A stretch of DNA of 64,000 nucleotides, taken from the NCBI GenBank assembly GCA_905178155.1, contig CAJINV010000012.1:2072166-2136165 (forward strand). Reading direction: 5' to 3'. The notes under the pieces are model-generated. The model was not told the origin of the DNA. It saw nothing but the letters and a program-made list of their open reading frames with translations, and did no database searches. Positions 6,255 through 56,900 of the stretch are shown here, piece after piece (the first letter of the stretch is position 1; each line of letters starts with the position of its first letter). Origin of the DNA: Amoebophrya sp. A120. Its lineage: Eukaryota; Protista; Dinoflagellata. A program made the position numbers and the translations under genes.

Positions 6255-6322
6255 ACCCTGCAACGAAATCGAACCTGCATGCTGCAGATGTGTTTCGATT
6301 TCTCTCTTGTCGCTGATATCCA
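6255..6322 (+). repeat. 68-bp direct repeat, copy 1 (copy 2 at 7569-7636)
   Basis: ACCCTGCAACGAAATCG...GATATCCA, 3 mismatches between copies. Confidence 0.85.
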
Positions 6323-7413: not shown

Positions 7414-7564
7414 GAAGAACAAGATGCAGGACCTGGGCCACTGCGGCTTGGAGACGAAGATTTCGGCGAAACATGTTTTGTACTTTTTGGATGCAATGAA
7501 GTCACATCAGTACAAAGAGGCTTAATCTGAATCTGTCTTCTTTCAGTTATATTTTCCTCAATAA
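7414..7564 (+). repeat. 151-bp duplicate of window positions 1-151
   Basis: Identical by direct comparison. Confidence 0.9.
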
Positions 7565-7644
7565 TTCCACCCTGCAACGAAATCGAATCTGCATGCTGGA
7601 GATGTGTTTCGATTTCTATCTTGTCGCTGATATCCACTTCATAT

Positions 7645-10600
7645 TCATCGGCTCCTGGAGGATTTCCCAACCAGATCGACGAAGCCAGGCTGGCCCCACG
7701 CATTTTTTTCCACGTTCGCCCTCCAATGATTCTGTGACACAGAAGAAGAGGAGGATTCGTCCTCTTTCATCTCCCTTCTCATCTTCATCTGCAAATGCCC
7801 AGCCCCGAGCGGAAAAAAGCGTCCAAGCTCGAAAAACAGGCGTCCACAGATTTCCGACCGCGGCGCCGAAATCATATTCTTAAACCCGTTCGGAAACACT
7901 GTCAAATGAAAATATCATCTCTGGGTGGTCCTCTGGAAGAAAAATGCAATGTCTACTGTCATGCACATTTTACATGACCCATGAACATGAAGTGTGTAAT
8001 CATTTATGATGCATGCCAAAGCAACATGACATCGGAGTTCTAAGGGCTGTGTCCACAGCAACATGACAGATTTTCTGAGTGCTTCTCGATGCCTATCCTG
8101 CATGAGAAATAATTCCGTCTCCGCCCGCGCGTAGCAAGCGCGGCTGGACTCCCCTTGCTGCTCAAGAAGCAATATTACATCAGATAGTTATAGTTTCAGA
8201 ATCAAAAAGCACCAGCATAGTCTACCAATCAGTATACATAAAAATTTGCGCCCTACAACAAACTTTCAGACCCAGACATCTTTTTATTTGCGCTGCATAA
8301 ACACGCTGTTGCCGCAATGTTCTTGTGTGAAGCTTCTGCCGATTTTCACGAGTTCTGACTTCGGAGGAAGAGTCTCACGGCTTCCGTAGTTCTGAGGGCG
8401 GTTATTTTGTTCGAGTCCAGCACGGGCGGGACCACGAACATCATCTCGAACTCGATCTTCATCGACCCGCTCAACCTCTGTTGCCAACCTCCCAACATAC
8501 GCGTAAAATGGTTCCATCTCAGTCTCCTCTGCGTGCGCGCTGGCCATGGTGACGGTCAAGATGCGATTTTTCGGGATCCTGTAAAACTTGTTCGCCACCG
8601 TCCGCAGACGCATCGTGACCACGGGAAGATTTTCGTTTTTGATCGGTACCAATAAGTCGCCTCTTGTTGTACTATTTATTTCACTGCCTTGCTTAGTGCC
8701 ATTTGATGTCCTCCTCACACCCGCCAGCATCGCTTTCAGCACCGGGAGCAAGTCGGACGGCCTGAATATTTGGTTCCGAGAAACGTCACCAGTGATGTCC
8801 GTCATCTTCATAAAGCCAAAAAGGGCAAGAAAATCTAGCTCATTGTATAGGTAATCGCGAAGCCCGACCCTTTTGCTCACGAGCGGCATTCTTGTTCTTC
8901 GGTCATACAGTTTCTTGCAGGGCAAGAATCCGCTGCAGATTCTTTCCACCAAAGAACTCCCGTCCACGAAATATTTCGTGATTTCAGCCTGCGTTAGCGT
9001 GTCGATGATGTTGCTCGTGGTTTCATCCACACTTCTGTCAAAAACAGGCGAAGTTGAAGATGGTGCCCTCGTGGCTCTACTTGTTGTTCCTGAAATTCTT
9101 CTACTTGCTCTCTCCGCCGCTAAATTCTCGAGTTCGTTTTCCAAAAACGAAACCGCTTTTTCCAATCGGAAAACGGTCGAGTCCCCACATTTCCAGAGGA
9201 TCAAGCGGGACGCGTTGTTCTGCAAAGCTGGAAAAATTGCGGAATTGTCCAAATACGCGCCGTCCATGTAGGAAGCCCATACCGGGGCAGTTTTAGTATT
9301 CACTTTTGCGGTTTGATGTGATGCTGAACCTGGATGATCACCTCCACCTCGCCCAGTGTCAACATTCTTGACCGGCATTCCGATGAGCTGCAACGGTGAG
9401 GAAACGTGTCCGAGAAGATTCGCCGGGGCATTCGTACTAGCCGCGATCGCGTTATGGGAGCGTCAGGATCGAAGTCGATATTAAAGTTGAAAAAAATGTG
9501 ATGCAGAAAATCAATACCAGTTGTGGAAGCCCAGTTTCCAAGTAGCGCACAACAAATTTTGGCACTATATAAATCCAGTCTGTCATGCTGACTTTTTAGG
9601 GAAAGAAGGCGTCTTTTGTCATGCTACTTTAGCAGCTCTATCGCAGACCCCAAACAGGGCGACAGTCGGCCTCGTCACTTGCCATCCCTGCAAGCGAGGC
9701 ACTTCATGCCTTGCAATTTATGCGTGAGAAATTCTTTCAACTTTGTCGATTTCGGTCCTGACGCTTCCATACGCATGCGCGACCGATGGCACGCCAGAGC
9801 GTCTCGTGTTTTTTGCTTCAAACTGTCTGCTTCGGATGAACAAAACGCTCTTCACACGGTCCGCAAAAGTGGAGCGGTAGGTCGAGAAGGTAGAGGAAGT
9901 GTAGGGCTGTTTATCTAGAAGTTGTACTTTGTGCAGGACAGGGCGAGAGCCTGCTGATGTTCTGGGAAACGAATTGTCAAATTCCTCGTCCTCTGGCACG
10001 GACACCGCGAGCCCGTCTCGGTAAAAGGACAACGGCAAACATATTGTAAGGAAAAATATCCCCTCCCCATATTGAAAAGGAAATTTTTTGTGATGCTGAT
10101 TTGTGAGCAGCTTTAATGTCTTGCGTACAAGGCAAACGGCACCCATGACGTGGCGCCTTGTGCAGCGAGTCTGTCAAGCGTTTTCTCCTACCATGTGAGA
10201 CTTGTTTCTCGTGCTCAGCTGCTAGCCAGATGCGTAGTACCAAAATGGGCTTAGAACAATATGCCGACAAGCTCTTTCTGCAGTACAAAACGACCCATTT
10301 GTGTAGTACGCAAGAAATCCAGCAACGCAAATTCATCTTTTGAATACGGGGGGTGTCACTGTCAGGGCTTTTTTCACTTTGATAAAATACCCGTACTTGT
10401 GCAGCGCAGAGTTCTTGGCTGTTAATCTCGGCAGAGATACCAGTTTACTGCTCCATGACCATCTACGGATCCCGGTGACGAGGATCGGTTGCGGAGCGGT
10501 CGCGCCGAGGAGTCTTACTGGTGCGCTGTCCATCAGTGGTGGTGGCTCGAGGTCATAATTTCTTGGCTGCAGCAAATGTTGATTCCAATTGCTTTCCAGC

Positions 10601-13600
10601 GATGCCAATGCTTGTCCTTGCAGAATCCCAGCGGCAAAACTGCTATCAAATGTAAAAGTGTCTGGGTCTGGAAGAATGCAACTTGTCATGCTAGTAAATC
10701 TGAAGCATGCAAAAATCTGTGTTGCGTGATTACCAAAAGTCGTCCAGTTTTGACCAAGTCGGGAGGCAGTTTCTCAAGCGGGATAGGCAGGAGAAAGATC
10801 GCACAGAATCTGTCATGCTAGGTCCTGCATTCCAGACCTCATCGGTCATGGAAAAGCTGCATGACAAGTCGCGCATTCTTCCAGACCCAGACATTTTTAC
10901 ATTTCATAACTGCCCAGTAAACTCGATTTTGACAGGTCGTAGACGGGCGGGCGAGTGAAATTGAAATTGAGATTGATCTGCTCGTCAGCATCATTGATGT
11001 TGTAGAAGTTCTGGTCAGCTCTAGAAGTACTCCCACCTCCAGCGGCCTTAACAGCTGCCGGCGTGGTCGTATTTTTTGCCTCCGCGACGTCTGGTCGAGG
11101 TCGAGCCCCACCTCTTGTTCCAAAGAACAATCTTCGCACCAAGCCTACTCGCGAGGTGGACTTGCGTTCTTTGAGAAGCAATTGGCGCAATTCCGTCACG
11201 GTTAAGCCTCCGGAAAACCGGATCAGCCGCGCGTTGTGCGCGGCACGATTGTTATTGTGTAGTTCTTCTTGTTGAGTGTCAATAGAAGTAGTTGCACCAG
11301 CAACATCTTCGAAGTGGCTGCGTCGTGCTGCGACGTTGTTCCTGCTGTAGCTGTCCTGCCAAGTGGGGTCTTCTTCTTTCACAAGGGCAACATTGCGCAA
11401 AAACTCACGCTCAGCCATGAGAGTGGGCTCCTGGTGCGGCAGTGGATCATAATTATATGGATTTTCACGTAGTAGACCGCCGGCGTGGTCTACATCTTCA
11501 CCGTGCAGTTGTAGTTTGTCTGCAGGAGGAGGAAAATTCCCCTGATCTTCCAACCGAATCTTATGCAATGCAAATATGTCATCCTCTGGGCGGTCTGAAA
11601 TCCTATGCAAGATTTGCCATGCTTGTCTGGCACGACCCTGAGGTCTGTGATGCACACACACACACACGAACAGCCCCTGCTCTTGCCTGTTATGTTGCAA
11701 AAACGCCATTTATTCTTATTGCCAGGCGGAATACGAAACACGTAGCAGGAGCTGAAAAATGTTGCCATGCGTGACTGCCCACTCCAGGAGCTGCGCGCCC
11801 TTCAATCGCAGACTTGCATTATACAGTTTTCCAGATCCAGACATATTTGTATTTGATAACTCTCGGCCCCGTACAAAAGCTTCGCCACGGTCCAGGACCC
11901 ACCCGAAGAACCAGTCAGGTACTATCCTATGTAAGAACGTCCCCACGAGGACCCCACAGTTGTCAAGTTGGAAACTCAGCAACGCAATAAATCCAGAAGT
12001 AGTTTTGGGCGTTACGCATGACAGATTTTGCGCTGTACTATTGTGTTGCAGGTTAGCTGCAAGGACAGCCGCATCACAAAGAAATCCATCTTCCACCTAT
12101 CGTGCTGTTTATGTACTACAGCACTACAATTGCGGCCAATAAAGAACGACTGTGAACGCCTCGCAAGAACATTGGGATGCGTATTACAAGTGTTCCTGGT
12201 CGTCCTCCGATTGGCGATTGCAAATTATCTGCATGACGAACAACTCTGGGAGGGCTATGGACCACGTCTTTGTTGAGGATAGGTACTCGGGCCACTTCCC
12301 TTCGATAGTGGAGTTGACAGCAGCACGACGAGGACCAGCACCACCGGTATTGTTTACATCATTGTCGTCGTCTTCAACTTCTCCACCACTGCCACTAGCC
12401 AGCGTGGTGAACAAAGCCTGAGCAAACCCGATCCCGGTTAAGTGCATCCGATACCCGCCGCCAGCAATACAGACGGCCGTAATTGGGTGCGGTTCGCCCT
12501 GATACAGGAGTTTGAAAGAAGTGTTTATTGTCCTTGTTGTTTTGGCGCGAGCAGTAGTAGTCCCACTGTCATCAACATCAACACCCGAAGATGTTGAAGT
12601 CGTCACCAACTGCACCTCTTCATCTGCGGCAAACGGCTCGGTTGTGCCGGTAAGGGTCAGATACTGGTGTGCAGCAAAACTACCTGCCACAGGAGGTGGA
12701 GGCTCGGCAACTCCACGTGGTCCCCCAGATTTTATGTCATCAACAAGCGGGGGTGGACTCGCTCGGTACACGTATTCGTACCGGAAAGTAACCACGGAGG
12801 AGGAAGTCCACAGAAAAGACGAATCTACTTCTCGTACTCGTTCCGCGGCCGATAATGTTGAAGATCGCGCCCCCACATCATGATCCAGCTGATCTAGTTG
12901 ACTTATAACTTGGCAACCTGTCAGCTTCACGTCTTGCTCCATGAGTACTTCTACCTTTGATTTCGTCATATTATGGTCCTCGTCGTGCACATCGTGCAGC
13001 ACAACTGTCTGCACTGGCACATTCTGGATACGTGCGTGGTAGAAGAGCGGAGGTTCTTCGTCATCTTCTTCTTCTTGTTCAAAATGATCTACCTCGCCTT
13101 CATCAACAAGAAACGTGGCGCGGCGTTCGCCATCACTTCGACTTCTGTCGTTGTTCAATTCTCTCCTTTATGCATTGCAAAAGTATCGTGCTCGTAGTAA
13201 GTGTTGCAATACAAGTTAGCTCAGCATGACAAATGGAATTTCTCATGCTGATTTAGCTTGAAGAAGAAATTTGTCTTGCATGACTGCGATTAGTACCAGT
13301 ACGATACTTGTTTTGCACAGGATATCCTTCTTTATAGGCTCTCGGAAATTCATGTGAGAGTCCATTTCTGAAAATTTAAAATTCGCAAACTTCGAAACCC
13401 TCTGCGAATCTTATAACACGCGCCCAAAACCCGGCCCCGGCGAACCCCATTCAGCTTCCAAAGTCAACAAGGCCCCGAAAAGGGGGCTTCGAGAACTCTG
13501 AAAGATACGCGCCGTTTTTCTTCCAGAACTCTGGAGCTTCTCTTTTGTGGACTTCGAACAAGCCGGCCCTCGATCCGGAGCCGCTTGATCCCCGAACGCC

Positions 13601-16600
13601 GAGGTTGGCTCCATTGCCTAGTCCATGAGGTGCCCACCACGGCTTTGAGGTTCCGAAGCCAACAAATTCGACACACATGAATTTCTCAGGCTCTGAAAGA
13701 AAAACGGCGTCTTTCTTTCAGAGCCTGAGAAATTCATGTGTGTAAATGTTGAGCCAATCCCCTTCCATCAAAAGGGCGGCTGGTCGCCGGCCGTCTGGGC
13801 TGGCTTGATTGCCAGCTCCGGATCACGGCGGCCAAAGGTTCAATCTTTTCAAGTAATCAAATCTGACACACATGAATTTCTCAGGCTCTAAAAGAAAAAC
13901 GGCGTTTTTCTTCTAGAGCATGAGAAATTCATGTGTGTAAATGTTGAGCCAATCCCCTTCCATCAAAAGGGCGGCTGGTCGCCGGCCGTCTGGGCTGGCT
14001 TGATTGCCAGCTCCGGATCACGGCGGCCAAAGGTTCAACTTTTTCAACAAATCGAATTTGACACACATGAATTTCTCAGGCTTTAAAAGAAAAACGGCGT
14101 TTTTCTTCTACAGCCTGAGAAATTCATGTGTGTAAATGTTGAACCAATCCGCTTTCGCCAACAAGGCGGTTGGTCGCCGACCGTCGGGGCTGGCTTGATT
14201 GCCAGCTCCGGATCACGGCGGCCAAAGGTTGAACTTTTTGAAGAAATCGAATTTGACACACATGAATTTCTCAGGCTCTAAAAGAAAAACGCCGCTTTTC
14301 TTTTAGAGCCTGAGAAATTCAAGTGTGTAAATGCCTTTCGCCGGCCCCCGGCTGGTGAAAATCCCCATTGGTAACTGAAACATTTTTCAGCTACCAATGG
14401 GGATTTTCACCACTCGGTGAGTGGCGAAAGCGCTTTCGCCACTCACCGAGTGGCGAAAATCCCCATTGGTAACTGAAAAGCTTTTCAGTTACCAATGAGG
14501 ATTTTCACCTCTAGGTGAGAGGCGACAGCGCTTTCGCCTCTCACCTAGAGGTGAAAATGCCCATTGTAAACTGAAAATCTATTCGCCACTGACGAAGGCG
14601 ACTCCTCCTGGTGGAAATTAATTCAAGTGTGAAAATTTGTTGGGGCTGTTATTGGTCTCGAAAAACGAGTCGCTTTCAGCACTCTTTTTTTTGCTACCCC
14701 CGATGGGTAACAATTCAAGTGTGAAAATTTAAAAGAGTCACTGGAACGACTCACTGCAATGACTCTTTCAATAGAGTCTCAACTATTTCTCTTCATAATT
14801 AAATTTACGCACTTGAATTTACTGTCTTTTAAATTTACGCACTTGAATTTGTTGCCAATGGCAATAAATTCAAGTGCGTAAATTTAAAAGACTCCTTCGA
14901 AGGAGTCCTTGCAAGGAGTCCCTGCCTGGACTCATTGCAAGGTGTAGCCGGAAGAGTCGAACGCAAATCCAAAACGAAAACGATTCATCCCCAACAATTT
15001 GCACTAGCGCCAGCAGATGTCCCAACTACCTCCTCCCCCAACCCCCGCTACCTCCCCTGGGGCCCGAGCCTTCTCCTTCCCAACCCGGACCACCTCCTCT
15101 ACAAGTTCAGCCGCCTACTCCCGGAGCCAGGTCTTCTCCTGTGGGCCCCGGCCCCCTTCACGCGGAACCCAGACCACTTCTTCCACAGCCCAAGCGCCCT
15201 CATCCGGAGCCTGGACCCCCTCCTTCCAAACCTCCGCCACATTCTTCGGAACCCAGGCGCCCCTCGTCCCAACCCGGAAACGGCCCCGGCCCTCCCGCTG
15301 CTTTCTTCTAAATGGCCAGACCCGAGGCGCTTCAGCTTTGAAGGCAAAGCCCATCGCCCCCTTCTGAGCTGAGGCCGCTCAACCCTTGCAGACCTACCTG
15401 CCCCAGAGGCCGAAGCGGGAGGAGCCTGCCTATGCTGGCATCCACGTGGGGCCGTGTCATTTGTCTCGCCTCGAGCCACCTCGCAGTCGGGGGCGGGTTT
15501 TACAAAAATGGCCGGAGTTGAGGCGCTTCACTTCACGAAGGGCAACCAGCTTGCCGAACCACGGCGAAGGCGCTCAGCTTTGTTGGCTTTGCTTGTCCAC
15601 GGCCCGAAACCTCTTGCGCCCTGGCCTATGCGAAGCCGGGCGCGGACCTAATGCCCTTCCTTTTCCGAGCTGGCCCTAGCGTGGCGCCACATCGACGACG
15701 ACTTAAAACACCCCACAAGAGAATGCCTGGAGGGCGCCGGAAGGAGGGCTCGGGCAGCCACCTTCCGGCAAAGCCTTGCAGCTACACACCGCGAGGGGAC
15801 CACAGAGCGCACCCCCTGAAAACCGGAGCCGGGCCCCTCACTATTCAGAACATGCCCTAAAGTGGTTCGCAACGCACTCCACTCAGCTGGTTTCTTAGCC
15901 ACAATCTTCATAGTGCCAGTGCCGATCGTGAATGCTTGCCGTCTGTAGAGGTGTCGCTCTGCCACTCAGAGGGGCGAACTACAGACGCTCCCGGCGGCCA
16001 GAACCCCTATGCCCTGCCCCCAAATCGCGGCCCCCGATGGCCGACAAAACCGCCGAAAACCGAAAACACGCAGAGCCACCAAACTGAGCCGAAACACCTA
16101 AGACCGAGAAACACAAGCCGGCGACCAGTGCAACTGCTCCAGTTTTTTCTTCGGGCAAAGGCCCCAACGTGGGCGGCAGGCCTGTGCCCGGGCGACGACC
16201 ACAACAGAGCAGGATGCCAGGAGTGAGGTCATAACCCAGAGGGCCGAAGCGCTTAACGTGCGAAATAAAAAGCGCGGCGCCGGCGCTGCCGTCGCTACTT
16301 CTTGCAGAACTGTAGCGGTTCGACTCTGGCAGCAGCTCCGTGGCTGGGCAACTTGCACAAGCAAAGGAGGCGCGCAATGTTTTGCCATTGGCGCTATTCG
16401 AAAACTGCGAAATTTAAATTTTCGAACATGGTACTAGACATGAATTTCTCTGAGCCCATATTCTTGTTCCAGCACCCGAGGCCGGGTTGTAAAAGTTCAC
16501 ACGTTATCAAGTGCAAATATGTCTGGGTCTGGAATAAACTTGTGATGCATGTGAGTGAACAGAAAGCGCGCTGTAATGCACCGCCAAGCATGACAGATTT

Positions 16601-17035
16601 TCTCGTGCTGGCACTGTGTTGCGTATTCCGCATGAGAAACATGGTTTTTGCATGACAGACAAGAGGAGGTGGTCTTCCGATGGCCCTACGCAATACAGAG
16701 TTCTGAGTCATGCCAAACTAGCATGAGAAATCTTGCAATCTTCCAGACCCAGACATATTTGCCATGCATACACGTGCGCAGAGCTCGGCAAAGGTCAGTG
16801 GTGGAGCTGAGCTGCGAGAAGAAACTTCATCTTCCTTCACCTTCAGAGCTGACGCTGACCGAGAAAAAACTTCGTCTTCCTTTACCTTCAGAGCGGCCAC
16901 AGCACACCAGGCCCAGCCTGCCGTTCCGTAGGACCGCTTAATTATCTGCAGATTATCCAGGACGTCGGTCAGGAAGCCCTGCAAGAGCAGCAGAGCGCAG
17001 CTCAGGAACTGCCGCTGCTGGTGGGAAAAGAACAT
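7645..17035 (-). CDS. cPLA2/lysophospholipase (patatin-fold) phospholipase, paralogue 1, with N-terminal hydrophobic signal; interrupted by 9 elements
   Basis: Reconstructed splice gives AVCIAGGGYR (oxyanion loop), YLTGSSGGSW (GxSGG nucleophile) and YMDGAYLDN (catalytic Asp); collinear with 18767-24106. Confidence 0.75.
7900..8299. mobile_element. Introner-like element, family A (degenerate)
   Basis: DR AACAC/AACAC; removal joins CGNSV|FPNGF as in paralogue 2. Confidence 0.8.
9453..9771. mobile_element. Introner-like element, family H
   Basis: TIR TATGGGAGCGTCAGGATCGAAGTCGA; DR CGCGT/CGCAT. Confidence 0.85.
10042..10384. mobile_element. Introner-like element, family E (degenerate)
   Basis: DR AAACA/AAATA; removal gives HKYGY|LPLSFYR, matching paralogue 2. 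Confidence 0.8.
10644..10908. mobile_element. Introner-like element, family A
   Basis: TIR TATCAAATGTAAAAGTGTCTGGGTCTGGAAG; DR ACTGC/ACTGC. Confidence 0.9.
11562..11858. mobile_element. Introner-like element, family A (degenerate)
   Basis: DR AATCT/ACTCT; same codon position as family B element 21937-22088 in paralogue 2. Confidence 0.8.
11923..12281. mobile_element. Introner-like element, family F
   Basis: TATCCTATGTAAGAACGTCCCCAC...GAGGATA; DR GGTAC/GGTAC. Confidence 0.85.
13169..13324. mobile_element. Introner-like element, family B
   Basis: TIR TATGCATTGCAAAAGTATCG; DR TCCTT/TCCTT. Confidence 0.9.
13670..14330. repeat. 195-bp tandem repeat (units start 13670, 13865, 14060, 14255), each with an approximately 73-bp hairpin
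   Basis: ACACACATGAATTTCTCAGGCTCT...AGAGCCTGAGAAATTCATGTGTGT repeated. Confidence 0.9.
14354..14580. repeat. Array of alternating palindromes (about 98-bp period)
   Basis: GGTGAAAATCCCCATTGG...CCAATGGGGATTTTCACC alternates with ACTCGGTGAGTGGCGAAAGC|GCTTTCGCCACTCACCGAGT. Confidence 0.9.
16505..16770. mobile_element. Introner-like element, family A
   Basis: Family A TIRs; DR CACGT/CACGT. Confidence 0.9.
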
Positions 17036-18766: not shown

Positions 18767-21700
18767 TCACTCTCGTCCACCCCTGGAGGTCCTCTGCACC
18801 AGATCCACGAAGCCAGGCTGGCCCCACGCATTTTTTGCCACGTTCGCCCTCCAGTGATTCTGCCACACAGAAGAAGACGAGGACTTGTCGTCGTCTTTCA
18901 TCCCGTCCCTTTTCATTTTCATCTGCAAATGCCCGTCCCCGAGCGGAAAAAAGCGTCCAAGCTCGAAGTACAGGCGTCCACAGATTTCCGACCGCGGCTC
19001 CGAAACCATCGACCAAAACCCATTGGGAAAAACCCTGCTGCCGCAATGTTTTTGTGTGAAGGCCTTGCCGATTTTGGCGAGGTCTGATATTAATCCTCGC
19101 CGAGAAGTTGTAGCCCTCGAAGTGCCAGCATCAACTTCACGCACCAACCTCCCAACATACGCGTAAAATGCCTCCATCTCCGCCTCCTCTGCGTGCGCGC
19201 TGGCAAAGGTGACGGTCAAGATGCGGTTTTTCGGGATTTTGTAAAACTTGTTTGCCACCGTCCGCAGACGCATTGTGACGACGGGGAGTTTTTCGTTTTT
19301 GATCGGTACAGAAGAACCGCCTGTACCAAAATCATTTTCACTATCACTGCCTTGATGTTTGATATTCCTTTTCACACCCGCCAGCATGGCTTTCAGCACC
19401 GGCAGCAAGTCGGACGGCTTGAAAATTTGGCTCCGCCTCAGGTCAAAGGTGGTACTGTCCGTCTTCATGAAGCCAAAGAGGGAAAGGAAATCGAGCTCAT
19501 TGAAGAGGTAATCGCGAAGCACCAACGACTTTCTCCCGTCCACGAAATGCTTCGTGATTTCACCTTGCGTCAGCGTGTCGATGATGTTGCGAGCGCTTGA
19601 AGTTGATATTTCTTCATCACTATCGAAATAAACAGGCGGAGTTGATGTCCTCCTGTCTCTACTTCCAGAAGTAGTTCTTCTCCTTCTTTCCGCCGCTAAA
19701 CTCTCGAGTTCGTTTTCCAAAAACGAAACCGCTTTTTCCAATTGGAAAACCGTTGACTCCCCGCATTTCCAAAGGATCAGGCGGGATGCGTTGTTTTGCA
19801 AAGCAGGAAAAATTGCGGAATTGTCCAAGTACGCCCCGTCCATGTAGGAAGCCCATACCGGTGCAGTCCCTACTTTTGCGGCTTGTGATGCTGAAACTGC
19901 ATGATCACGACGTCGTCCACCAGTCGTGTCCTCATTCTTGAGCGGCATTCGGACGAGCTGCAACGGTGAGAAAAAGTGTCCGCCAACATTCCCCGGGCCA
20001 TTCGTACTAGCCGCGACCGCGTGGGCAACCGAGGGCACGCCGGGACGTCGCGTTTTTGTCTCTTGAAAATGCCTGCTCTATCAACTGTAAAAATGTCTGG
20101 GTCTGGAAGAATCCAACTTGTCACGCTGATTTTGGATTCTAAAAAAATCTGCATTGCATGAGCAGCAAAGAGAGTCCAAGTTTTGCTACACGGGAAGAGC
20201 CTTTGTCATGCGGTATAGGCATCAGGAAGCCCTCACAAAATCTGTGACGCTAGGGCATGCATCACAGACATCAGGAGTCATGCAAAATGTGCATGACAAG
20301 CCTGGCAATCTTCCAGACCCAGACATTTTTACATTTGATATGCTCCGGAAAAGCAAAACGCTTTTCACACGGTCGGAGAAGTTGGAGCGGTAGGTGGCGA
20401 AGTTCGAGGAAGTGTAGGGCTGCTTATCTACAAGAACTTCGTGTCGGAGTCGGACAGGACGACACGAGCCTGCTCCTCCGGAGGGACACGAATTAAAATT
20501 ATCGAACGCCTTGTCTTCTGGCACGGACACCGCGAAACCGTCTCGGTAGAAGGAAAGCAGCAAATATCTGTACTTGTGCAGCACGGAGTTCTTTGCCGTC
20601 GCTCGTTGCCATCCTATGCAACAAGAAAGAAACTGTGTAAATGAAAATGTCTGTGATGCAAGAAATGCATAACTGTATACGCTTGTCATGCTGGGTGTGC
20701 ATCATAGGCAACTTTCATACGTGTTTCCACGTGCTAGCTGCGCATGACAGGTTCTCCCTGTACTGCAAAGCGAATTTGTGATGCTGTTCTTCCTACAAAG
20801 TTACACTTACACAGTTTTTTTCCTGGATACATCCCTTGCTCCATTTACCGATCGAGGTGACGATGATCGGCTGCGTATCCTGTGTAAAAACATCCCCACC
20901 CCGACCCCAGAGTCAAGATGGGGATTTTGCAACACAAACCTGAAAGTTTTGGGAGCCACGCATGACAAGTTGCAGGCTGTAGTGTAATGCCGTTTCGCAA
21001 GGGAAGGCGCATAACAAATCCTTCTCCTTATCCTGTTGACAGCATTACAACTTCCAAAACACGATGGGAAATGCCTCTCATGGGGATGCGCATTATAAAT
21101 GCTCTTGTGCTTGCAGATCTGCATGACAACTCTGGTGTGGGTACGTTTTTACTCAGGATACTGCGGAGCGGTGGCGCCGAGGAGTTTGACGGGTGCGGTG
21201 TCTATCAGTGGCTCAAGGTCGTTTTCATCGTAATTAGTATCATTATTCCTTGTCTGCAGCAAATGTCGATTCCAATTCCTTTCCACCTTTGCCAGTGCTT
21301 GGCCCTGCAGAATCCCAGCGGCGAAGGTGCCCATTAAATTCGACTTCGATAGGTCGTAGACAGGAGGCAGAGTGGAATCGATTTCGGCCGCGGCGGGGCC
21401 CGTATTCTCAAGAGCATCAGGGATGATGATGTTGTTCTCGTCATCTGTAGTACTCTCGTCCACTCCAGCGGCCTCAACAACTCGCGAGGTAGTTTTATTT
21501 GCCCCGCCCGGGTCGTCTGAAGATCGACGCCCTCTTCCCAATGAAAATCTTCGCACCACGCCTAGTAATCGTGAAGACTTGCGTGTTTTGGAAAGCAATT
21601 GGCGCAATTCCGTCACGGTTAAGCCTCCGAAAAACCTGATCAGCATCGCGTTGCGCGCCGCACGGTTGTGATTGTGTAGTTCGTGAGTGTCAATGGAAGT

Positions 21701-35000: not shown

Positions 35001-37824
35001 ATTATTCTTCATCTCCTTGTTCTTCTTCGCAAAGTAGTCCGCATACTCCTATCCTGTGCAAAAGTATCGTACTCGTATAATTGCAATCATGCATTACAAA
35101 TTTTTTTCTAAGGGTGCATTCGCATTACAAATTTGATTTCTCATGCTGAGGGAATTTGTCATGCATTTATACGAGTACGATAATTTTGCAATTCATAACT
35201 CCTGTTCTGCAGCGATTTTATCCGCTTTCAAGTATTTATCCCGTGTGCAAAATCATCCTATGCTTGTAGTAATCTTTATCCGATGAATCATGCATAGGAT
35301 AGTTCCCAAGATAAATCAGCATGACCACACAGCATTCCGTGTCTCTTCTTGCTGAGCCACTTTGTAAGTACTATTGCAATTACTACTAGCAGGATACAAC
35401 TTTTACTTTTGCAATTGATAGTATTCCACCTGGTCTTCAAATTTGAAGAGCTCCTCTTTCGTCTTTTTCACGTCGGTTTTCAAGTCCTGCTTCCTACCGG
35501 TTAGTTTCGTCATATCAACTCCAAAAGTGTCTGGGTCTGGAAGGGTCATGCTGTTTTTGCATGACACACAAGGTCTGGCATGGAAGCTCTAGCATCACAG
35601 GTCTCCAGAAGCTTCCGAAATGCCGAATCCGCATCACAAATCCCCCATTTTGGTGACAGAAAGTGGGCAGCTTTTGCTGCCTAAGCATGAGAGATTTTTC
35701 TGTGTTCTGAAATGCGCATCACAAGTTTGTACTCTTCCAGACCCAGACGTTTTTGCAATTGATACGTCAGCCGCAGCTCCAACACATTCTTCTCCGACGT
35801 AAACAGCCCCATCTTGCTGGTCGCGTCCTTCAGCTCATAGTCCGCGATTTTCGCTTCAAGCTGTTTCTTCTTCACTGTGAGTTGTTCAAATTTTTCCAGC
35901 TCCTCTTTGTCAATCATCAGCTCGTTAATCTTCTTATCCAGGGATTCGACCAGCTCTTTATCAAATGCAAAAAGGTCTGGGTCTGGAAGGATGTGAAGTT
36001 GTGATGCGCATTTCACAACACACAAAAACCTTTCATGCATAGGCAGCAAAAGATGCCCACTTCCTAGCACCAAAGGGGGGCAATTGTCATGCCGATTAGG
36101 CATGGCGAAACTTTCTCGAAACCTGTGATGCTAGGCCTTCCATGCCACCAGACCTTCTGTGTCATGCAAAAACAGCATGACATCTTCCAGACCCAGACTA
36201 CATAATTTGCATTTGATACTCTTTTCCGTAAACCAACTGCTTCTCCTCGATCTCTTTCAATTGCTGGATCGCCAGCTCTATCGAGTACAAAAATGTCTGG
36301 GTCTGGAAACTTGTAATGCTAAAAGTGAATGATAGACGCACTGGAATACGCCGCTATGCATATTCCGCATGGCAAACTGCGTTTTTGCAGGACAGGTAAG
36401 AGGGTTTTTTCGTGCCTATGCAACACAGATTCTCGAGCCATGCCAGACAAGCATGACAAACTTGCATTCTTCCAGACTCAGACATATTTGCATTTGATAA
36501 ACTCCCGCCTTTCGTCGAATTTGCTGATCCCCAAAAAGTCCTCCATGTACTTCAGCCTCTGCTTGCTGTTCATCGCCTGTCCTGTGCAAAAGTATCGCGC
36601 TCGTAGTAAAAATTGCAGCTATGCATTACAGAGCTTTTTCTTAAGGCAAATCCGCATTACAAATTCCATTCCTAATGCTGAGCAAATTTGTCATGCAGTT
36701 TATACTACTAGCACGATACTTTTGCAATTCATATTGCCCCCAGCTCCGCGATTTTGCCCTGTTTGATGCACCAGTAGGGAAAAGAGTTCAGCGCGCCGAT
36801 GCCGCACTGCTCCAACAAGTCCGACACGGTTTGCTTATCAATCGCTTTGTCGTTTAGCGTGTAGTTTTTGCTGATGATAAACCTTTTCAGTTTCAGCTGC
36901 TTGTTCTTTGTAGAATTGTTTTCCTGGTTTAATATCAAGTTTTGCGGATTGCTGTTGTTGTTTTTGTTCGCAACGAAATACTGCTCCACAATGGCCGTGT
37001 AGGACTCCATATTTTTCGGCACCTCGAACACTAACTCGACGTAGTACTGCCTGTCATCGATGCCGCCTTGCTGTGCAGCGGCCACAACTGCTTTATTTCC
37101 ACCCGCCCCGCCGGCAGATACACTGGTGTTGACATTCTGAAACTCGCCCTCGTGCAGAACAGATAAGTTGTTATTTTTGTTCGCAGAACGTGCAGCTGCT
37201 CCCGCAGCATTCTTCTTGTTCCCCGAGGGGCCGTTATTTCCCCCGACCTGGACAGTCAAAACGTTGTCCGACAGCACAAACAAAATGTATGGCGTTCTCA
37301 AACGTTAATACATGCTCAACTGCTACATGAGTTTGTGACGCAAGAGCCGCAACAGTGAAAGGGGCAAGCAGCTTGCAACTCTCGCATCACAAATTCGGCA
37401 CAGATTTAGGTGCTGTTTAGGCCGCCTTCGGGGATTTGTCATGCGAGGTAGCTTGATCGTCTGGTGGCTCATAGTAATTTTGCATGACAAATCATGTAAC
37501 AAACAGCTGAGAATGTAACGTTTGAGAATCCCATTGCCATAAAATGGCATCCAGCACGTTCGATTTTCCGGCGCCGTATCCTGTGCAAAAGTATCGCACT
37601 CATAGTGCAGCCATGCATTGCAAATCTTTTTCTTTAGGTGCGTCAGCATTACAAATTTTATTTCTCACGCTGAGGAAATTTGTAATGCATTTATACGAGT
37701 ACGATATTTTTGCAGTTCATACGCCGTTGTAGCCAACGATGAGATTCCGCCCCGGGTGAAACTCCTTCTTTCCGCTCTGCTTGTACGTCTTGAAACCCGC
37801 AATCTCCACCGAACGGAGCCACAT
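26046..37824 (-). CDS. SMC3: Structural maintenance of chromosomes protein, most like cohesin SMC3; about 30 introners plus 2 GT-AG introns
   Basis: MWLRSVEIAGFKTY, Walker A IVGYNG|AGKSN, IKQGKI, hinge IEC|VPLDRL and CI|TLDGD, signature LSGGQKT, Walker B PAPFYLLDE|VDAALDPEYR, QLLITSFRPEL; stop at 26048-26046. Confidence 0.85.
26123..26289. mobile_element. Introner-like element, family B (degenerate)
   Basis: B-type ends; DR diverged (GCTGG/ATTGT) but removing the element plus 5 nt restores frame (ENHN|RVSTI). Confidence 0.65.
26542..26798. mobile_element. Introner-like element, family A
   Basis: DR TTCAC/TTCAC. Confidence 0.9.
26894..27170. mobile_element. Introner-like element, family F, in Walker B
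   Basis: DR AACTC/ACCTC. Confidence 0.85.
27236..27488. mobile_element. Introner-like element, family D
   Basis: TIR TATGGCGCTCTCAAACGTTACATTCTCAACTGTTACATG; DR AGGGC/AGGGC. Confidence 0.9.
27703..27855. mobile_element. Introner-like element, family B
   Basis: DR CCCGG/GCCGG. Confidence 0.85.
28121..28411. mobile_element. Introner-like element, family G
   Basis: TATGAGAATGCACAAG...CTTGTGCACCACTCTGATA; DR CCAAC/CCGAC. Confidence 0.8.
28871..29191. mobile_element. Introner-like element, family E
   Basis: DR AATCT/AATCT. Confidence 0.9.
29237..29538. mobile_element. Introner-like element, family H
   Basis: DR TCCCA/TCCCA. Confidence 0.9.
29577..29812. mobile_element. Introner-like element, family D
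   Basis: DR TCGAC/TCGAG. Confidence 0.9.
29942..30092. mobile_element. Introner-like element, family B
   Basis: DR GCTTT/GCTTT. Confidence 0.9.
30211..30358. mobile_element. Introner-like element, family B
   Basis: DR AGTGT/AGTTC. Confidence 0.85.
30465..30663 (-). other. Canonical GT-AG intron in SMC3
   Basis: G|GTACTT...CCCAG|GT; AT-rich, no TIR; frame restored. Confidence 0.7.
30730..30891. mobile_element. Introner-like element, family B
   Basis: DR CGTCA/CAGCA. Confidence 0.8.
31150..31411. mobile_element. Introner-like element, family A
   Basis: DR TGCAG/TGCAG. Confidence 0.9.
31502..31655. mobile_element. Introner-like element, family B
   Basis: DR TGACG/TGATG. Confidence 0.85.
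31746..31956. mobile_element. Introner-like element, family C
   Basis: DR GACCG/GACGG. Confidence 0.85.
32024..32349. mobile_element. Introner-like element, family E
   Basis: DR TGTTC/TGTTC. Confidence 0.9.
32564..32818. mobile_element. Introner-like element, family A
   Basis: DR TGCGC/TGCGC. Confidence 0.9.
32874..33136. mobile_element. Introner-like element, family A
   Basis: DR ACACT/ACACT. Confidence 0.9.
33515..33712 (-). other. Canonical GT-AG intron in SMC3
   Basis: CAA|GTATAG...CCCCCAG|GCT; no TIR; frame restored. Confidence 0.7.
33761..33907. mobile_element. Introner-like element, family B
   Basis: DR TCTTT/GCTTC; frame restored. Confidence 0.8.
33963..34224. mobile_element. Introner-like element, family A
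   Basis: DR CTTCT/CTTCT. Confidence 0.9.
34268..34490. mobile_element. Introner-like element, family B (degenerate)
   Basis: TATGCACTGC...GCATTGCATA; DR TCAGT/TCAGT. Confidence 0.8.
34849..34983. mobile_element. Introner-like element, family B
   Basis: DR ATCCC/ATCCC. Confidence 0.9.
35050..35197. mobile_element. Introner-like element, family B
   Basis: DR ACTCC/ACTCC. Confidence 0.9.
35237..35420. mobile_element. Introner-like element, family B (degenerate)
   Basis: DR GTATT/GTATT. Confidence 0.85.
35513..35764. mobile_element. Introner-like element, family A
   Basis: DR CGTCA/CGTCA. Confidence 0.9.
35959..36218. mobile_element. Introner-like element, family A (opposite orientation to 35513-35764)
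   Basis: DR CTCTT/CTCTT. Confidence 0.9.
36279..36499. mobile_element. Introner-like element, family A
   Basis: DR AGCTC/AACTC. Confidence 0.85.
36578..36733. mobile_element. Introner-like element, family B
   Basis: Starts TGT; DR TCGCC/TTGCC. Confidence 0.85.
37288..37541. mobile_element. Introner-like element, family D
   Basis: DR AAATG/AAATG. Confidence 0.9.
37577..37721. mobile_element. Introner-like element, family B, in Walker A
   Basis: DR CGCCG/CGCCG. Confidence 0.9.
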
Positions 37825-39044
37825 TTTGTAGTTCTTGACAGTGTAGTTCTTGCTGCCTTATTTCCAAGTGGGCTAAAATTAAAAAACGAAAAAATAAAGT
37901 GTGGTACAATAAAGCGTAACCTTCGGAGGTGTTCTACTTCGTTGCTGTAAAAAAATTATCGTCCTCTCGGTCAACCGAGCTTTACAATTTGGGTCTTCTT
38001 CACGACATGAGCTTCCTATCGCCAAGCGATCTAGCTTTTTCTACTAACTTGGCAATGAATATGAAACCTCCTAACTTTCGGGGACAAGAGAAACCGCTTT
38101 GCGAGGATCCGCAAGAACCTGGAGGCCTCCAAATATATTGTTTTGGGTGCCCGTTTGACATTTTTGACTCGGTTTGCAATCAGTATTTCCCTCCAACAGC
38201 AATTCCCGTTTTTAATGCGATCTTAAACAAGAAACGCTCAGACGACTCTCGATGCGACTCCAAAAAATACGACTTCTGAAAAACGCCAAGATAGAAAGAA
38301 AAGAGCAGGCCGAAGATGAAAAAACAACAGATTCCTTTCGCAACGAATGTTATAGCTTGTTGGAAAAATAAGGTGTTGAAGCACTCGAGGATAAAACAGC
38401 TAAGCATGAAAAAACCGCCATCGTCCAGCGCAGCAACAAGGCCGCATCTACGCGAACGCAGCGAAGGAGGGTCAACAATAGAGCACATGGGAGCTGCTGC
38501 TCAGAAATGCGTGCTCTATCAGGTAAAGATTCAATCTTTTTATTTTCGTTTTTCGATGAAAATTCATCTCATCATGAGAGTTCTTACAATTTTCCTGTCG
38601 GGTGCGTCGTCCTGGCCCCAGGTTCTAGTCTTCAAACCAAAATCGTCATCAGTCGTACAGTTTTCTCAGATGCGTATTCACTTTTTTGTTGTAAAACGCG
38701 GTGACGTCTTTTTCAAATTTGCTCGTCTTCGCCGTGAGTTCTTTCAGCTCCTTGGCGATTTCTTTTTTTAACTTGTCGTTTTCTTCTTTATTCTCCTCGA
38801 GCTGGGAAAGGACAAGCATCTGATTCTCGTACCTGGTGTTAGTTTTACTTTTTGATTTTGTCCTTGGGATATAGGATATACACGTTCATCCTGTGTGATA
38901 AAATGGTCATGTTGGAGGAGAGTGTCCGCATCACGACACCATCACGAGAACAAGGACCACACGACTCAAAAACGAATAAACAATGTAGAAAATACAAATA
39001 CAGGTTGAATCACGCAAATTGATGATGATGAAGGTCAAAATTAT

Positions 39045-42299: not shown

Positions 42300-43690
42300 A
42301 GCACCATAAGAGTGGGCCACGGGGGACAAGGGTGGGTGAATGACAAGGAAAGCGACATACTATTGCAGGAGCAGCCACACACAGGGGCTGCATTAAGGCC
42401 CACACCGCATGGCCATGAGTATGCTTGCTTGATCCATTCACAGAGCTTCGCAGCCGTACCCGGGCGGGCGGCGCGGACATACAACGCCGGCCAAGCGGCC
42501 CCTGAAATGACGGGCGCCATGGATCATGCAGTTGTTGCTTGGCTTGCCAGGCTTGGCACTGCCCGGGCCCGGCGCGGCGGGGGCCCAACCGCAAGCATGC
42601 AAAACAAAGGAGGGGGCCGCCACATGCAAAGGCACTAGAGCAGGGCCACCCCTGGGGCCCCCCGCGCTGTCGATCAACCGCCACAACGGGCGACCGAGGG
42701 CGCAAGGGGCGGGGCGGGAGGTGACAGGCCCGGCGGCCGGGCGGGTAGACAGACAGAGAGACAGACGGCGAGCGGCGCCGGCCCCCGCCGTGTCGCTCGT
42801 CGTGTTGTGAGTGTATGGCTCACCGCGGTCGCCCGGCCCACCGAAAGGGCTCGCCCCCTTCAAATCGCGACGCCAGGAGCCCAGCCCGCGGAGGTTTTTG
42901 ATCTCGCGGCCGCGCGCGCCCCGCCCAAGCGGCGCAGTTGGTACGTCGCGAGCACCACCCCCCCCCCCCCCCCGGCCGGGCCGCAAGCGCCAGGGCGAAC
43001 GGGCCGGGCGCCCCCCTGCCGTGCAACGCCGCCCGCGCCCCCGCGTCCGGCCCGCGAATTTGGCGGCATATTTACGGGGCCCCCACCAGCGCCAAGGGAA
43101 GGGGGAACCGGCCCCGACCGCCCTCCGAGGCTGGCAATGTCGCGCGATGGCCCCAAGCTATACCCTGGGCGGCGGCTTTTCCAGATCGCGCGCGCCACCC
43201 TCTCCCGTCCCCGCCCGCGCCCAGCAGGGGCCTCCGCCCCCTGGGCGCGCTGTCTGCGCAATACTTCTCGCACATGCTGCGGAGCAAATATCTGGCATCA
43301 ACCTTCCGTCACCCTGTAAGTGGCAGAAGAAACACGCCAAACTTCCAGCCGGACAACTGCGCCGAGGAAATGTCTCACGCGCCAACGAGTCAACTTCTAT
43401 GCGAAGAGTCGGAAGTCCCGGCATCGCAAACAATTGCCCAGCCCGGGGGCTGCCGAACCTGCCGGAAAACGAAAAACGGCGCCGCAGGCGTGCGCTCCCC
43501 TCACAAAGACCACAGAGGCCCCGCAGGGCGGGCGCGACGCTCCTGAAGGCTTCCGGCGAAGGGCCGCGCGCGCGGCGCTTGCTGACTCCAAGGAACGAAG
43601 GGCGAGCTTCATTCTGCCGACCCTTATACACCAAAAGGGCGGATTCGGATACAGAAGGATACAATAAACAACCGGGGCGAACAACCTTCC
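42300..43690. repeat. Very GC-rich island, probable interspersed repeat or mobile element remnant
   Basis: Sharp GC rise, poly-C run near 42958-42973, ORFs in all six frames without a recognisable domain; boundaries approximate. Confidence 0.4.
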
Positions 43691-44207
43691 TCGTCTCCCT
43701 CTTGTGGGCGCAGAAATTTCAAGAAGCGTCTTCATTTGATGCACTTCGTTTTGATATGTCTTCTACCTTCCACGACGGCACGTCGCCAGTGCTGCCTTTT
43801 CCAGGGCACCAAAATCCATTCTGCGAAAAAGTCGCCAAGCATTTACAAGCCAAAATTTGCATTTGCTTGGTAGTTCCATCCAATTTATTTCAGCAGGCCT
43901 GAGTAATATCCGCAGTCGGAGTCTATGAACAAAAAAACGCAGGAAAACAGAACGTCATAAAGTCATCCTGTTCAGCACAGAAGACAATCTAATGAAAAAC
44001 AGAAATCGTATTCGTACAAGAAATCATACTAGTAGCAAAGAGCTCATCCAGGGCATAAATGAAATAAGCGTATGTAACTAGTAAGAGCTGTGACCGGAAT
44101 CGCCTGCCATCAATAAATAACATCGAGGCCACAAATACTCAACTCGATCCGCCACTGCGCCCGGGTAATTGAGTCGTGTCAGTCTACACTACAACTGTGC
44201 TCCACCA

Positions 44208-53910: not shown

Positions 53911-56900
53911 TCACACCGCATACGTTTGCGTTTCTTCTTCCTGCGTCGACTCAAGCAGAAGTACTTGGTCCACTTCCAAGACCTCGCAGGATTCGATATG
54001 CATTGCAAAAGTATTGCACTCGTACAAATTATCGCATGACAAGTTTGATGTTCCTCAGAAAATGAAATTCAAATTTCTAAAATGCAGATTTACCTAGAGA
54101 AAGACATCTGCAAGAATGCATGACTGCGATTAGTAGAGTACGAGTACGTCGCTACTTGTACAATCACAATGCGTATTCCATATGCTGTGCAAAACCATCG
54201 CACTACTACACTAGTATAAAAATAAATTGCATGACAAATTACATCCTCAGCATGAGAAATAACATTTGTAATGCGGATCTACATTGAGAATGACAATGAG
54301 ATTTGTAATGCATGAATGCGATTACTACGAGTACGCTATTTGTGCAATGCATATTCCAGCTGGTCCAACAACACCGGAATCTGGTTGTTCGGAATTCGCA
54401 TCACTTCCCCGTGCTGCGTGTCGTGCTTATCGACGTTCTTCCCCTGCTGCTGCAGCTGCTCGGTAGTAACATTTTTAGTAGAATCCGTTCGCAGGTGTTC
54501 CAAAAGTTCATACCGCTCTTGCCAGAAAGTCAGCTGATACGCGTTGTTTGCTTCACATTTCGGATCTTCTTCATCGCTCGTTTTGACAACGCCATCAGTC
54601 GACGTGGACAATGATTTCTTCTTCCGGATGCAGAGCTTCAGGTATTTTCGATCCCGCCGCAAGGCTTCGGGCACGACTTTCGCCACTGGATCCACTACGC
54701 AGCCGTAATTTATTTCCATGTTGGCAGCAGCTGCCCCGCGGGGTTCTACTCCCAGCATCCCACAGCTTTCCACGTCTTCCCCGTAAAGCGCTGCGTAGGG
54801 GTAAGAGCCGTACCGCCTTTCTGGGCCAACCGGTTCCCCCGTGCGCAAGTTTTTCCGCTCCGGCACGAGCCGGCAGGTGTGGGACAGCTGCGTCGGTTTG
54901 GATGTTCTAGTTTTTTCTTCATGCTGCTCGTCTTTTTCGTTCCCTCCTTTCCCTGCTTCGTTCCCTTCCTCCACCACCTCCGTTCGCACCACTTCCCACG
55001 CGAGAATCCCGTTCGGGAAAAGCCGCTCGTCCGCGGTGGCAAACCGCGCCCCCTGTTTGTCAAAGTCCACAGTATTGCGGATTTTCGAACGCTGCTCCTT
55101 CTGCGACTCCTGGAGGGGCGGCACGGCCATCGGAATTTCTTCATCCGAGGCTTTCATATAATTTCCTCCGCCGGAAGACGTTTTCATCCTCCTCTGTGCT
55201 CGTGCCGTTCTTGTACTAGATCCGTCGAAGACAGCGCGGACTTCCCTCATGATGTCCACGCTGACAACCTCCCTCATGAGAGTAACAAAGCCCTCGTCTT
55301 GGCCTTCCACGTCGTCCTCGTCCTCGTCGGACGTGGAATTTTTGTCCTCATCATCACTCAACTGCACCGTCGACGATGACGCAGCTTTGTCAACAGAAGA
55401 AGACTCGGAGGTGTCGCCAGCCGAAGATTCGGCAACGGCATCCTCTTCGTCATCTACTTCCACATCTTGTTCGGCGGGTGAAGAAGCGGAGTTCGAATCT
55501 TCATCTGCAAGAACTCCGTCGCGATCGTCCGCGTTTGCCGACGACGCACTAGCACCCGTCTGATGATCAGAGAACTTTTTAGTACTCAACATTTTCATCT
55601 GTCCTCCTGGTTTTTCCACCTTGGCCTTGCTTGGTAACATCTTTGTGAAATCTTTACAGAGTTGACGCGACGTTTCCACAGCTTTCAGTCGCGGGAGCAC
55701 AATATCTCTTCGTCCATCTTGCCATCTACCGAGAATCATTTCCGCATCCATCCGCATGTAAATCCCGCACAAAATTTTCCTGTTCAGCTCCTTGTTTTGT
55801 ATCCGTGTGTTCAGCTGCCGCCACTGTCTCGCCCTGCGTTCACTGTTCGGCGCATTGCCACCTGTTCCTTCTCCTGGATTATTATACCGCCTATTTTTGA
55901 ATTGTCCTATTCGCCGCCTCTTCATTCTCTTCAAATCTTTTGTCATCTTATCCAGTTTTAGTGCGAGGCTGTGCTTCACGAAGTCGATTTTGCATTGACT
56001 CAAAACATCTTCGGTGGACGTCTCTGAGGTTTCTGTTGCAGTGGATGTTCTTGTGGTTGCTGGGCAGCCCGTAGTACTATTTCTTTCCGCCTCGGGAACG
56101 CGTAATTCCTTCTCCAAAGCCTCGAGAGCTGCGGGCAGTGTGTTTTTGGTCATGACCATGGCGAGTTTCCGCTTTATGGGGCGAACAACATAATGCTCCA
56201 CCCGGGTCACCGCTTCCGTTCCCTGCATCACCGCACTCGTGGTCTTCACTTCCTGGCGGTGTTTTTTCATACCTTCTTCGCTCATCTCGTATGGTTGGCG
56301 ACCGCGGCCGGAACGGCGGGCGTTGATGATGATGGCTTGTTTTACGATCTCTTCGCCGGTGTTCTCGCTCGTCTCGGCAGCCGCGCCCGTCGACGTATCC
56401 AATTTATTGTTCATCTCACCGCTCTCCTCTCGATCTGCTCCTGGTCCTGCCAAGACTGCCAGTGACGCGAAAGAGGACGCGGCAGAGGCCGACGTCGTCC
56501 CCTCCAGCCCAGGAATCACTTTTTTCTGGATGTGCGGGATGGCCATGAATTGCGTGTTGATATGCAAAGAAAAAAGCGTTACAGTTTACACATTGTGTTG
56601 CAGGACCGGCAAGACAGACAACCTTTGTCATGCACGAAATGCTTTCGAGCCTGCTCGTTTCATACGTGTTTTCCCTTGTGATCTTTGCATTGCAAGTTTT
56701 GTTCTATGTGATGCAGAGAAAATTTGCGTTGCTGAAGTTCCACCATCGATCACCAAGTGTGTAACTGTAACTACACTTTTTTCGTTGGATAGTTTACCCG
56801 GTTTTCGCAGTAGTCCAGCAGGTCCAGCCCTTTGGCGTAATTGGTGAAGGCCGCACAGAACCTTGGCAGCGGATCCGTCGCGAAGATGGTCAGATACTTG

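Follow-up and report, generated by a model that had tools for sequence, protein, structure and literature searches.

Two unrelated introners at the same base of neighbouring paralogues in Amoebophrya sp. A120, and a target motif common to their families

Two neighbouring paralogous genes of the marine parasitic dinoflagellate Amoebophrya sp. A120 hold unrelated introners at one identical base. Both genes lie in the stretch of 64,000 nucleotides analysed here (the window): paralogue 1 (P1) carries a degenerate introner of family A (E1) and paralogue 2 (P2) a young introner of family B (E2) (Table 1). The two elements probably inserted independently into an empty preferred site, since one target signal is common to families A and B and the site of E1 and E2 carries it.

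Table 1. Positions in the window of the two genes, their introners and the elements of the shared site
Feature	Positions	Strand	Remarks
Paralogue 1 (P1)	7645..17035	-	1270 aa, 9 introners; possible patatin/cPLA2-like lipase
P1 introners	7900-8299, 9453-9771, 10042-10384, 10644-10908, 11562-11858, 11923-12281, 13169-13324, 13333-16460, 16505-16770		
Paralogue 2 (P2)	18767..24106	-	1291 aa from first Met, 6 introners
P2 introners	20079-20340, 20615-20829, 20876-21160, 21937-22088, 22139-22449, 22654-22862		
E1	11562..11858	-	degenerate family A introner, subfamily A2, in P1
Left target copy of E1	11557..11561	+	AATCT; downstream in gene; 1 mismatch to right copy
Right target copy of E1	11859..11863	+	ACTCT; upstream in gene; read in database protein (E-S)
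TTG target motif, P1 site	11874..11876	-	positions -13 to -11
E2	21937..22088	-	young family B introner in P2
Left target copy of E2	21932..21936	+	ACTCT
Right target copy of E2	22089..22093	+	ACTCT
TTG target motif, P2 site	22104..22106	-	positions -13 to -11
Tandem of two B copies	53997..54353	-	triplicated target TTCGA/TTCCA/TTCCA; site re-use or tandem duplication possible

The window is full of elements of 135-400 bp that start with TAT, end with ATA and are flanked by 5-bp direct repeats; 68 were catalogued, and families A and B account for 15 and 14 of the 49 that were compared. According to the text of PMC7789003, A120 introners are non-canonical introns of many families, with inverted repeats composed of TAT, seven variable bases and AAA, and are bordered by direct repeats of 3-5 nt. 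E1 and E2 have TAT, seven variable nucleotides and at least three A at each of their four ends, and their 5-bp repeats (4/5 bases matching at E1, 5/5 at E2) are of the kind by which A120 introners are defined.

Gene models were built by removing each element together with one copy of its 5-bp repeat. Removal of nine elements from P1 and six from P2 left each gene with a single ORF on the minus strand (1281 and 1304 codons, respectively), and the encoded proteins are identical at 768 of 1169 positions, the flanks of the common site being in register. One database protein (P0002) equals the P1 model from its first Met and another (P0001) is a suffix of the P2 model; both are annotated as Amoebophrya sp. 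A120. For P0001, Pfam returned two matches below cut-off (PLA2_B, E = 0.051; Patatin, E = 0.066) and for P0002 none; the GGGxR, GxSGG and DG motifs of the host proteins may mark them as lipase-like (patatin/cPLA2). PDB held no match to the host protein, and its predicted structure was unusable (pLDDT 28).

The first-pass annotation had placed both elements at LYGAES|RL, and the positions and repeats that it gave for E1 (AATCT/ACTCT) and E2 (ACTCT/ACTCT) proved exact: both junctions fall in alignment column 1596, in phase 0. It was equally right that the 13 remaining elements are private (8 junctions in P1 and 5 in P2, none common; the nearest private cross-pair is 14 nt apart) and that the two occupants differ in family and in state. 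E1 clusters with family A and is degenerate, with 44 inserted bases relative to the consensus of its relatives, from which it stands at a distance of 0.29 ± 0.04, and with one TIR arm broken; E2 clusters with family B and is well preserved (0.065 ± 0.02 from the consensus of its relatives). The alignment proposed there as a check on non-homology gave a local score of 22, within the range of E1 against other B copies (21-28). This score was matched by 15 of 500 interior shuffles and 46 of 500 full-length shuffles, and the match itself is a short subterminal stretch of a type found in several families. With copies of its own family, each of the two elements aligns over its full length.

Neither E1 nor E2 can be removed as a GT-AG intron (on inspection, none of six cut registers is GT-AG). 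Removal of E1 as an intron is supported by restoration of the ORF and by the database protein. In P2, three of the elements are missing, with the register exact, from a contig of 2266 nt in run X3, whose RNA status was guessed; the match of this contig ends at 21931 with 49 nt remaining, which fit the next 45-nt exon plus 4 nt, i.e. removal of E2. The E1 junction is uncovered by RNA-type contigs in three runs guessed to be RNA, a result uninformative on expression, and equally uninformative are the reads of run X9, which match element ends only. A 1466-bp contig of run X1 (possibly the window's own sample) covers E1 together with its two flanks and shows 0 differences. An RNA hairpin was predicted for E2 (z = -10.0) and a weak one for E1 (z = -2.3, with 2 of 100 shuffles equally good).

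Target preference was analysed in an outside sample from another assembly, where the family A end, used as a search pattern, gave 173 loci (L001-L173); merging reduced these to 153 stretches (440 kb), which have no exon overlap with the window. The loci were thus chosen through family A, and short ones are numerous. They contained 377 detected elements, of which 345 had usable flanks and 218 could be assigned confidently to A (172) or B (46). Insertions of A and B share a motif, roughly (A/T)(A/T)(A/T/G)-T-Y-G-Y, at -16 to -10 from the target duplication, which occurs on either side of the duplication and on either gene strand. The preference is strong for T at -13 and for G at -11 (~1.2 bits per position), and the 5-bp duplication itself is unbiased. 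Of 436 site halves, 148 had T-Y-G at offset -13; at each of the 15 other offsets that were tried, the count was 7-25. The motif is one-sided, since it was found on both sides in 11 of 218 sites compared with 37 expected, and its side is independent of element orientation.

The signal is common to the two families: a model trained on A scored B sites at +2.5 bits, and one trained on B scored A sites at +2.8. Among held-out window sites (the 59 with a good repeat, E1 and E2 included, 9 of 68 having been dropped) the scores were +3.1 bits for A (n = 20), +2.7 for B (n = 16) and -2.9 for other families (n = 23). When 36 window A/B introns were viewed in gene orientation, the motif lay upstream in 18 and downstream in 10, and it therefore acts like a DNA signal and not like an RNA splice signal. 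We infer that the targets of A and B are chosen at the DNA level by common machinery. No target preference had been detected in the window alone with a matrix of ±10 nt (58 sites), a negative that was wrong because the motif sits at -13 to -11, outside that matrix. At the site of E1 and E2, TTG occupies -13 to -11 in both paralogues as the Leu codon of L-Y-G; the site scores +5.3 bits in P1 (rank 24 of 3846) and +3.0 bits in P2 (rank 160 of 3915).

The comparison with random insertion that the first-pass annotation had proposed was made for this gene pair only. The uniform chance of a shared site is 1.3%, and circular shifting gives the same 1.3% for at least one exact coincidence, a value that makes the case unusual but is not decisive for a case picked by a scan. 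With motif weights the chance of an exact coincidence in P1/P2 becomes about 2.7-3.0%; A/B-A/B pairs coincide at 7.2 times the uniform rate and supply 56-62% of the expected coincidences, though they are 10 of the 54 pairs. If insertions were confined to open regions common to the paralogues and covering 50-25% of the gene, which is an assumption, the chance would be 5-10%; a peak of introner spacings at 30-79 nt (90/242 in the outside loci) hints at such regions, as do the closeness of the other P1 and P2 sites and a near-miss in another paralogue pair (L011, below). Once the shared pair is left aside, the proximity of P1 and P2 sites is not significant (p = 0.077). No same-family intron is common to P1 and P2; the 90%-identical duplicates L044/L033 do have one. 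In a tandem pair of cysteine-rich paralogues (L011; 366/499 aa identical), whose nine introners are all private, the right ends of one A element and one G element (L011:4416-4679 and L011:9795-10118) lie 2 nt apart, an offset that is not obtainable by precise replacement; the left repeat of the G element matches at 2/5 bases only, which weakens this near-miss.

The four-fold distance between P1 and P2 is 0.32 in total, or 0.16-0.22 per lineage. At 0.065, below 0.16 per lineage, E2 thus postdates the gene duplication. Two private P1 elements stand at 0.31 and 0.51, and none in P2 exceeds 0.20. In the L011 pair, private elements stand at 0.08-0.17 vs 0.08 per lineage; the age proxy therefore overshoots 1.0-2.1-fold if all are later gains, and E1 may be ancestral or not. 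Judged by the nearest relative in the window, P1 elements are not significantly older than those of P2 (p = 0.48); with outside relatives, four P1 elements have identities of 0.54-0.66, and the lowest in P2 is 0.81. Perfect repeats flank 126 of 144 young vs 17 of 37 old elements, in a catalogue whose detector itself favours good repeats, and the perfect repeat of E2 favours a fresh insertion by about 1.9:1.

One alternative, which we consider unlikely, is direct replacement: A was present before the duplication and was exchanged for B in P2, either (i) by excision of A followed by repair of the gap on a B template via the common terminal 13-mers or (ii) by insertion of B in tandem at the intact motif side and deletion of A between repeat copies. 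Families A and B do have seven terminal 13-mers in common, the apparent age of E1 (0.29 ± 0.04) exceeds the 0.16-0.22 per lineage, and a motif at the site is expected under replacement too. Moreover, P elements give 32 tandem insertions and 2 precise replacements at a resident element (text of PMC3887531), and the window holds one shared-repeat tandem, in which the motif-side copy looks younger (0.18 vs 0.22, with overlapping errors) and around which the ORF reads through 1476 codons after removal of both B copies. However, this tandem may be a simple duplication, and none of 242 neighbouring pairs in the outside loci has a gap below 20 nt or forms a shared-repeat tandem. A/B chimeras are absent among 255 A or B elements, both halves of E2 being B, and the repeat of E2 is perfect. 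P2 is also without any old A-type element, and the other old P1 sites would likewise need clean loss; the age on which the argument draws comes from a proxy that overshoots 1.0-2.1-fold in the L011 pair. The second route requires a deletion on top of the insertion that parallel gain needs anyway, so that only a swap dedicated to gap repair would be able to beat parallel gain.

Pure coincidence, met through the reading of many windows and with target preference irrelevant, is very unlikely: uniform placement alone yields 1.3% for a pair of this kind, and about 40% of the expected coincidences involve no A/B pair, but what was observed pairs an A with a B element, at a site that the motif places among the top ranks of both genes. 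It can scarcely be credited that one ancestral intron diverged past recognition or that the assembly or alignment is at fault, since E1 and E2, in spite of similar first 13 bases of A and B, each align with their own family and not mutually beyond background, the flanks are in register, and a DNA-type contig places E1.

Under independent insertion, one putative transposase or integrase-type machine would move both A and B, with one half of the complex reading T-Y-G and the cut made 10 nt away with a 5-nt stagger; an old A copy would have entered P1 and a young B copy would later have entered the empty P2 site. Whether A reached P1 before or after the duplication divides this reading: arrival after the duplication is quite possible, albeit held at somewhat less than even confidence, and an ancestral A that was cleanly lost from P2 before B was gained there is somewhat less likely. 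The probability left for anything besides these two histories and direct replacement is slim. Against independent insertion stand the chance of only about 3% for P1/P2 even with the motif, the three P1 elements (0.29, 0.31 and 0.51) that appear older than the split, and the finding of neither a transposase nor an outgroup gene: the database protein search returned only the two window proteins, no outgroup gene was seen in metagenomes, and the representatives held only P0001. A-type element ends were likewise absent from the viral contigs searched.

The first-pass annotation had inferred either a nucleotide-precise hotspot or replacement. A hotspot holds in a weaker form, the site being among the roughly 220 effective sites that A and B prefer in each gene and not a unique nucleotide-precise one; replacement is the less probable reading. 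The target rule lowers the effective sites of A and B to this number from about 3850 per gene. As a tentative generalization, introners may be steered by family-specific one-sided motifs lying 10 nt beyond the duplication, with used sites staying targets and the intron sequence turning over. A used site would remain a target because insertion leaves the motif, the spacer and one target copy intact, and turnover could proceed by tandem re-insertion, by loss and regain, or by replacement. If true, 'conserved' intron positions arise without conserved introns. Shared intron positions are usually taken as inheritance, and here a base-exact position holds two unrelated introns. The frequency of parallel gain becomes countable in a genome that contains introners by the tens of thousands, and the one-sided distal motif both constrains the mobilising protein and groups families by common machinery.

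Parallel intron gain is known from several systems, as far as the texts of the cited reports go. Fungal introner-like elements were gained in parallel within a 15-bp window across species (PMC4457414); in Daphnia pulex, exon sequence at parallel-gain sites was not significantly different (PMC4202315); in Micromonas, parallel gain was hinted at and replacement judged less parsimonious (PMC4540971). The P1/P2 case resembles those of fungi and Daphnia in the independent gain of unrelated introns at the same or a near position, and differs in being base-exact, in lying between paralogues of one genome and in involving two mobile families with a shared target signal. We regard the single case as a variant of known parallel intron gain, and the distal one-sided motif for Amoebophrya introners as the more valuable result. 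In its text, the account of A120 introners by Farhat et al. 2021 (PMC7789003) compares positions between strains only, and this text holds no paralogue comparison, no same-site cases with different families and no distal target motif. Neither same-site, different-family introns between paralogues nor a distal motif for Amoebophrya introners was found in the literature searched, which included text passages of PMC7789003, PMC12130899, PMC9860276, PMC11282704, PMC5647799, PMC3879977 and bioRxiv 2020.10.14.339549.

Elements with common ends that insert at, or precisely replace, a resident element are described for P elements in the text of PMC3887531; that system is experimental with near-identical ends, whereas A and B have ~13 terminal bases in common and the site of E1 and E2 shows no intermediate. 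Retroviral integration motifs, as presented in the abstract of PMC10547254, resemble that of A/B in that they look symmetric in aggregate and are one-sided per site, and the stagger is 4-6 nt. Those sub-motifs are weak and adjoin the cut, whereas the A/B motif is separated by 10 nt from a duplication that is itself unbiased, and is apparently family-specific. A palindromic target model has been proposed for DNA transposons (PMC2577343), and Copia/Gypsy-like ORFs are reported within TIR-bounded A120 introners (text of PMC12130899).

Several further observations concern the introners at large. In the outside loci, none of 242 exon gaps between neighbouring introners was shorter than 20 nt, 90 measured 30-79 nt, and the sharp fall past 80 nt persisted in loci longer than 3 kb; targeting of linkers or a lower limit on exon size may underlie this pattern. 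The spacings showed no 10-bp periodicity, the motif faced toward the near neighbour in 40 cases and away in 39, and very close neighbours in the window (at most 5 nt apart) were not significantly in excess (2 observed vs 1.35 expected). Retroposition via a relict spliced leader was considered and rejected (4 matches to the leader motif vs 2.9 expected, none near P2). By eye, no common site was seen between two distant paralogues (54-59 kb and 61-63 kb), one boundary there being uncertain. Other families possibly have motifs of their own at -13 to -11, namely TAC in G (5/18 halves), CAA in H (5/16) and TGA in F (7/34), and T at -13 is apparently preferred in D, all in small numbers.

The A copy at 8466-9720 of L011 carries an insert of about 1 kb. 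In the window, a long coiled-coil gene at 26110-37830, which we take to be SMC-like from its motifs, holds 30 introners and three gaps treated as ordinary introns. The GC-rich stretch at 42300-43700 gave no Rfam match and is possibly another large insertion. Near-identical short duplications lie downstream of P1 (1-151 / 7414-7564 and 6255-6322 / 7569-7630). The P1 intron at 13333-16460 is a TAT...ATA element of 3.1 kb whose TTCTT duplication is perfect and whose interior has tandem repeats and a GC-rich core; it contains ORFs of 80-179 aa and leaves a 3-nt exon beside the B copy at 13169-13324.
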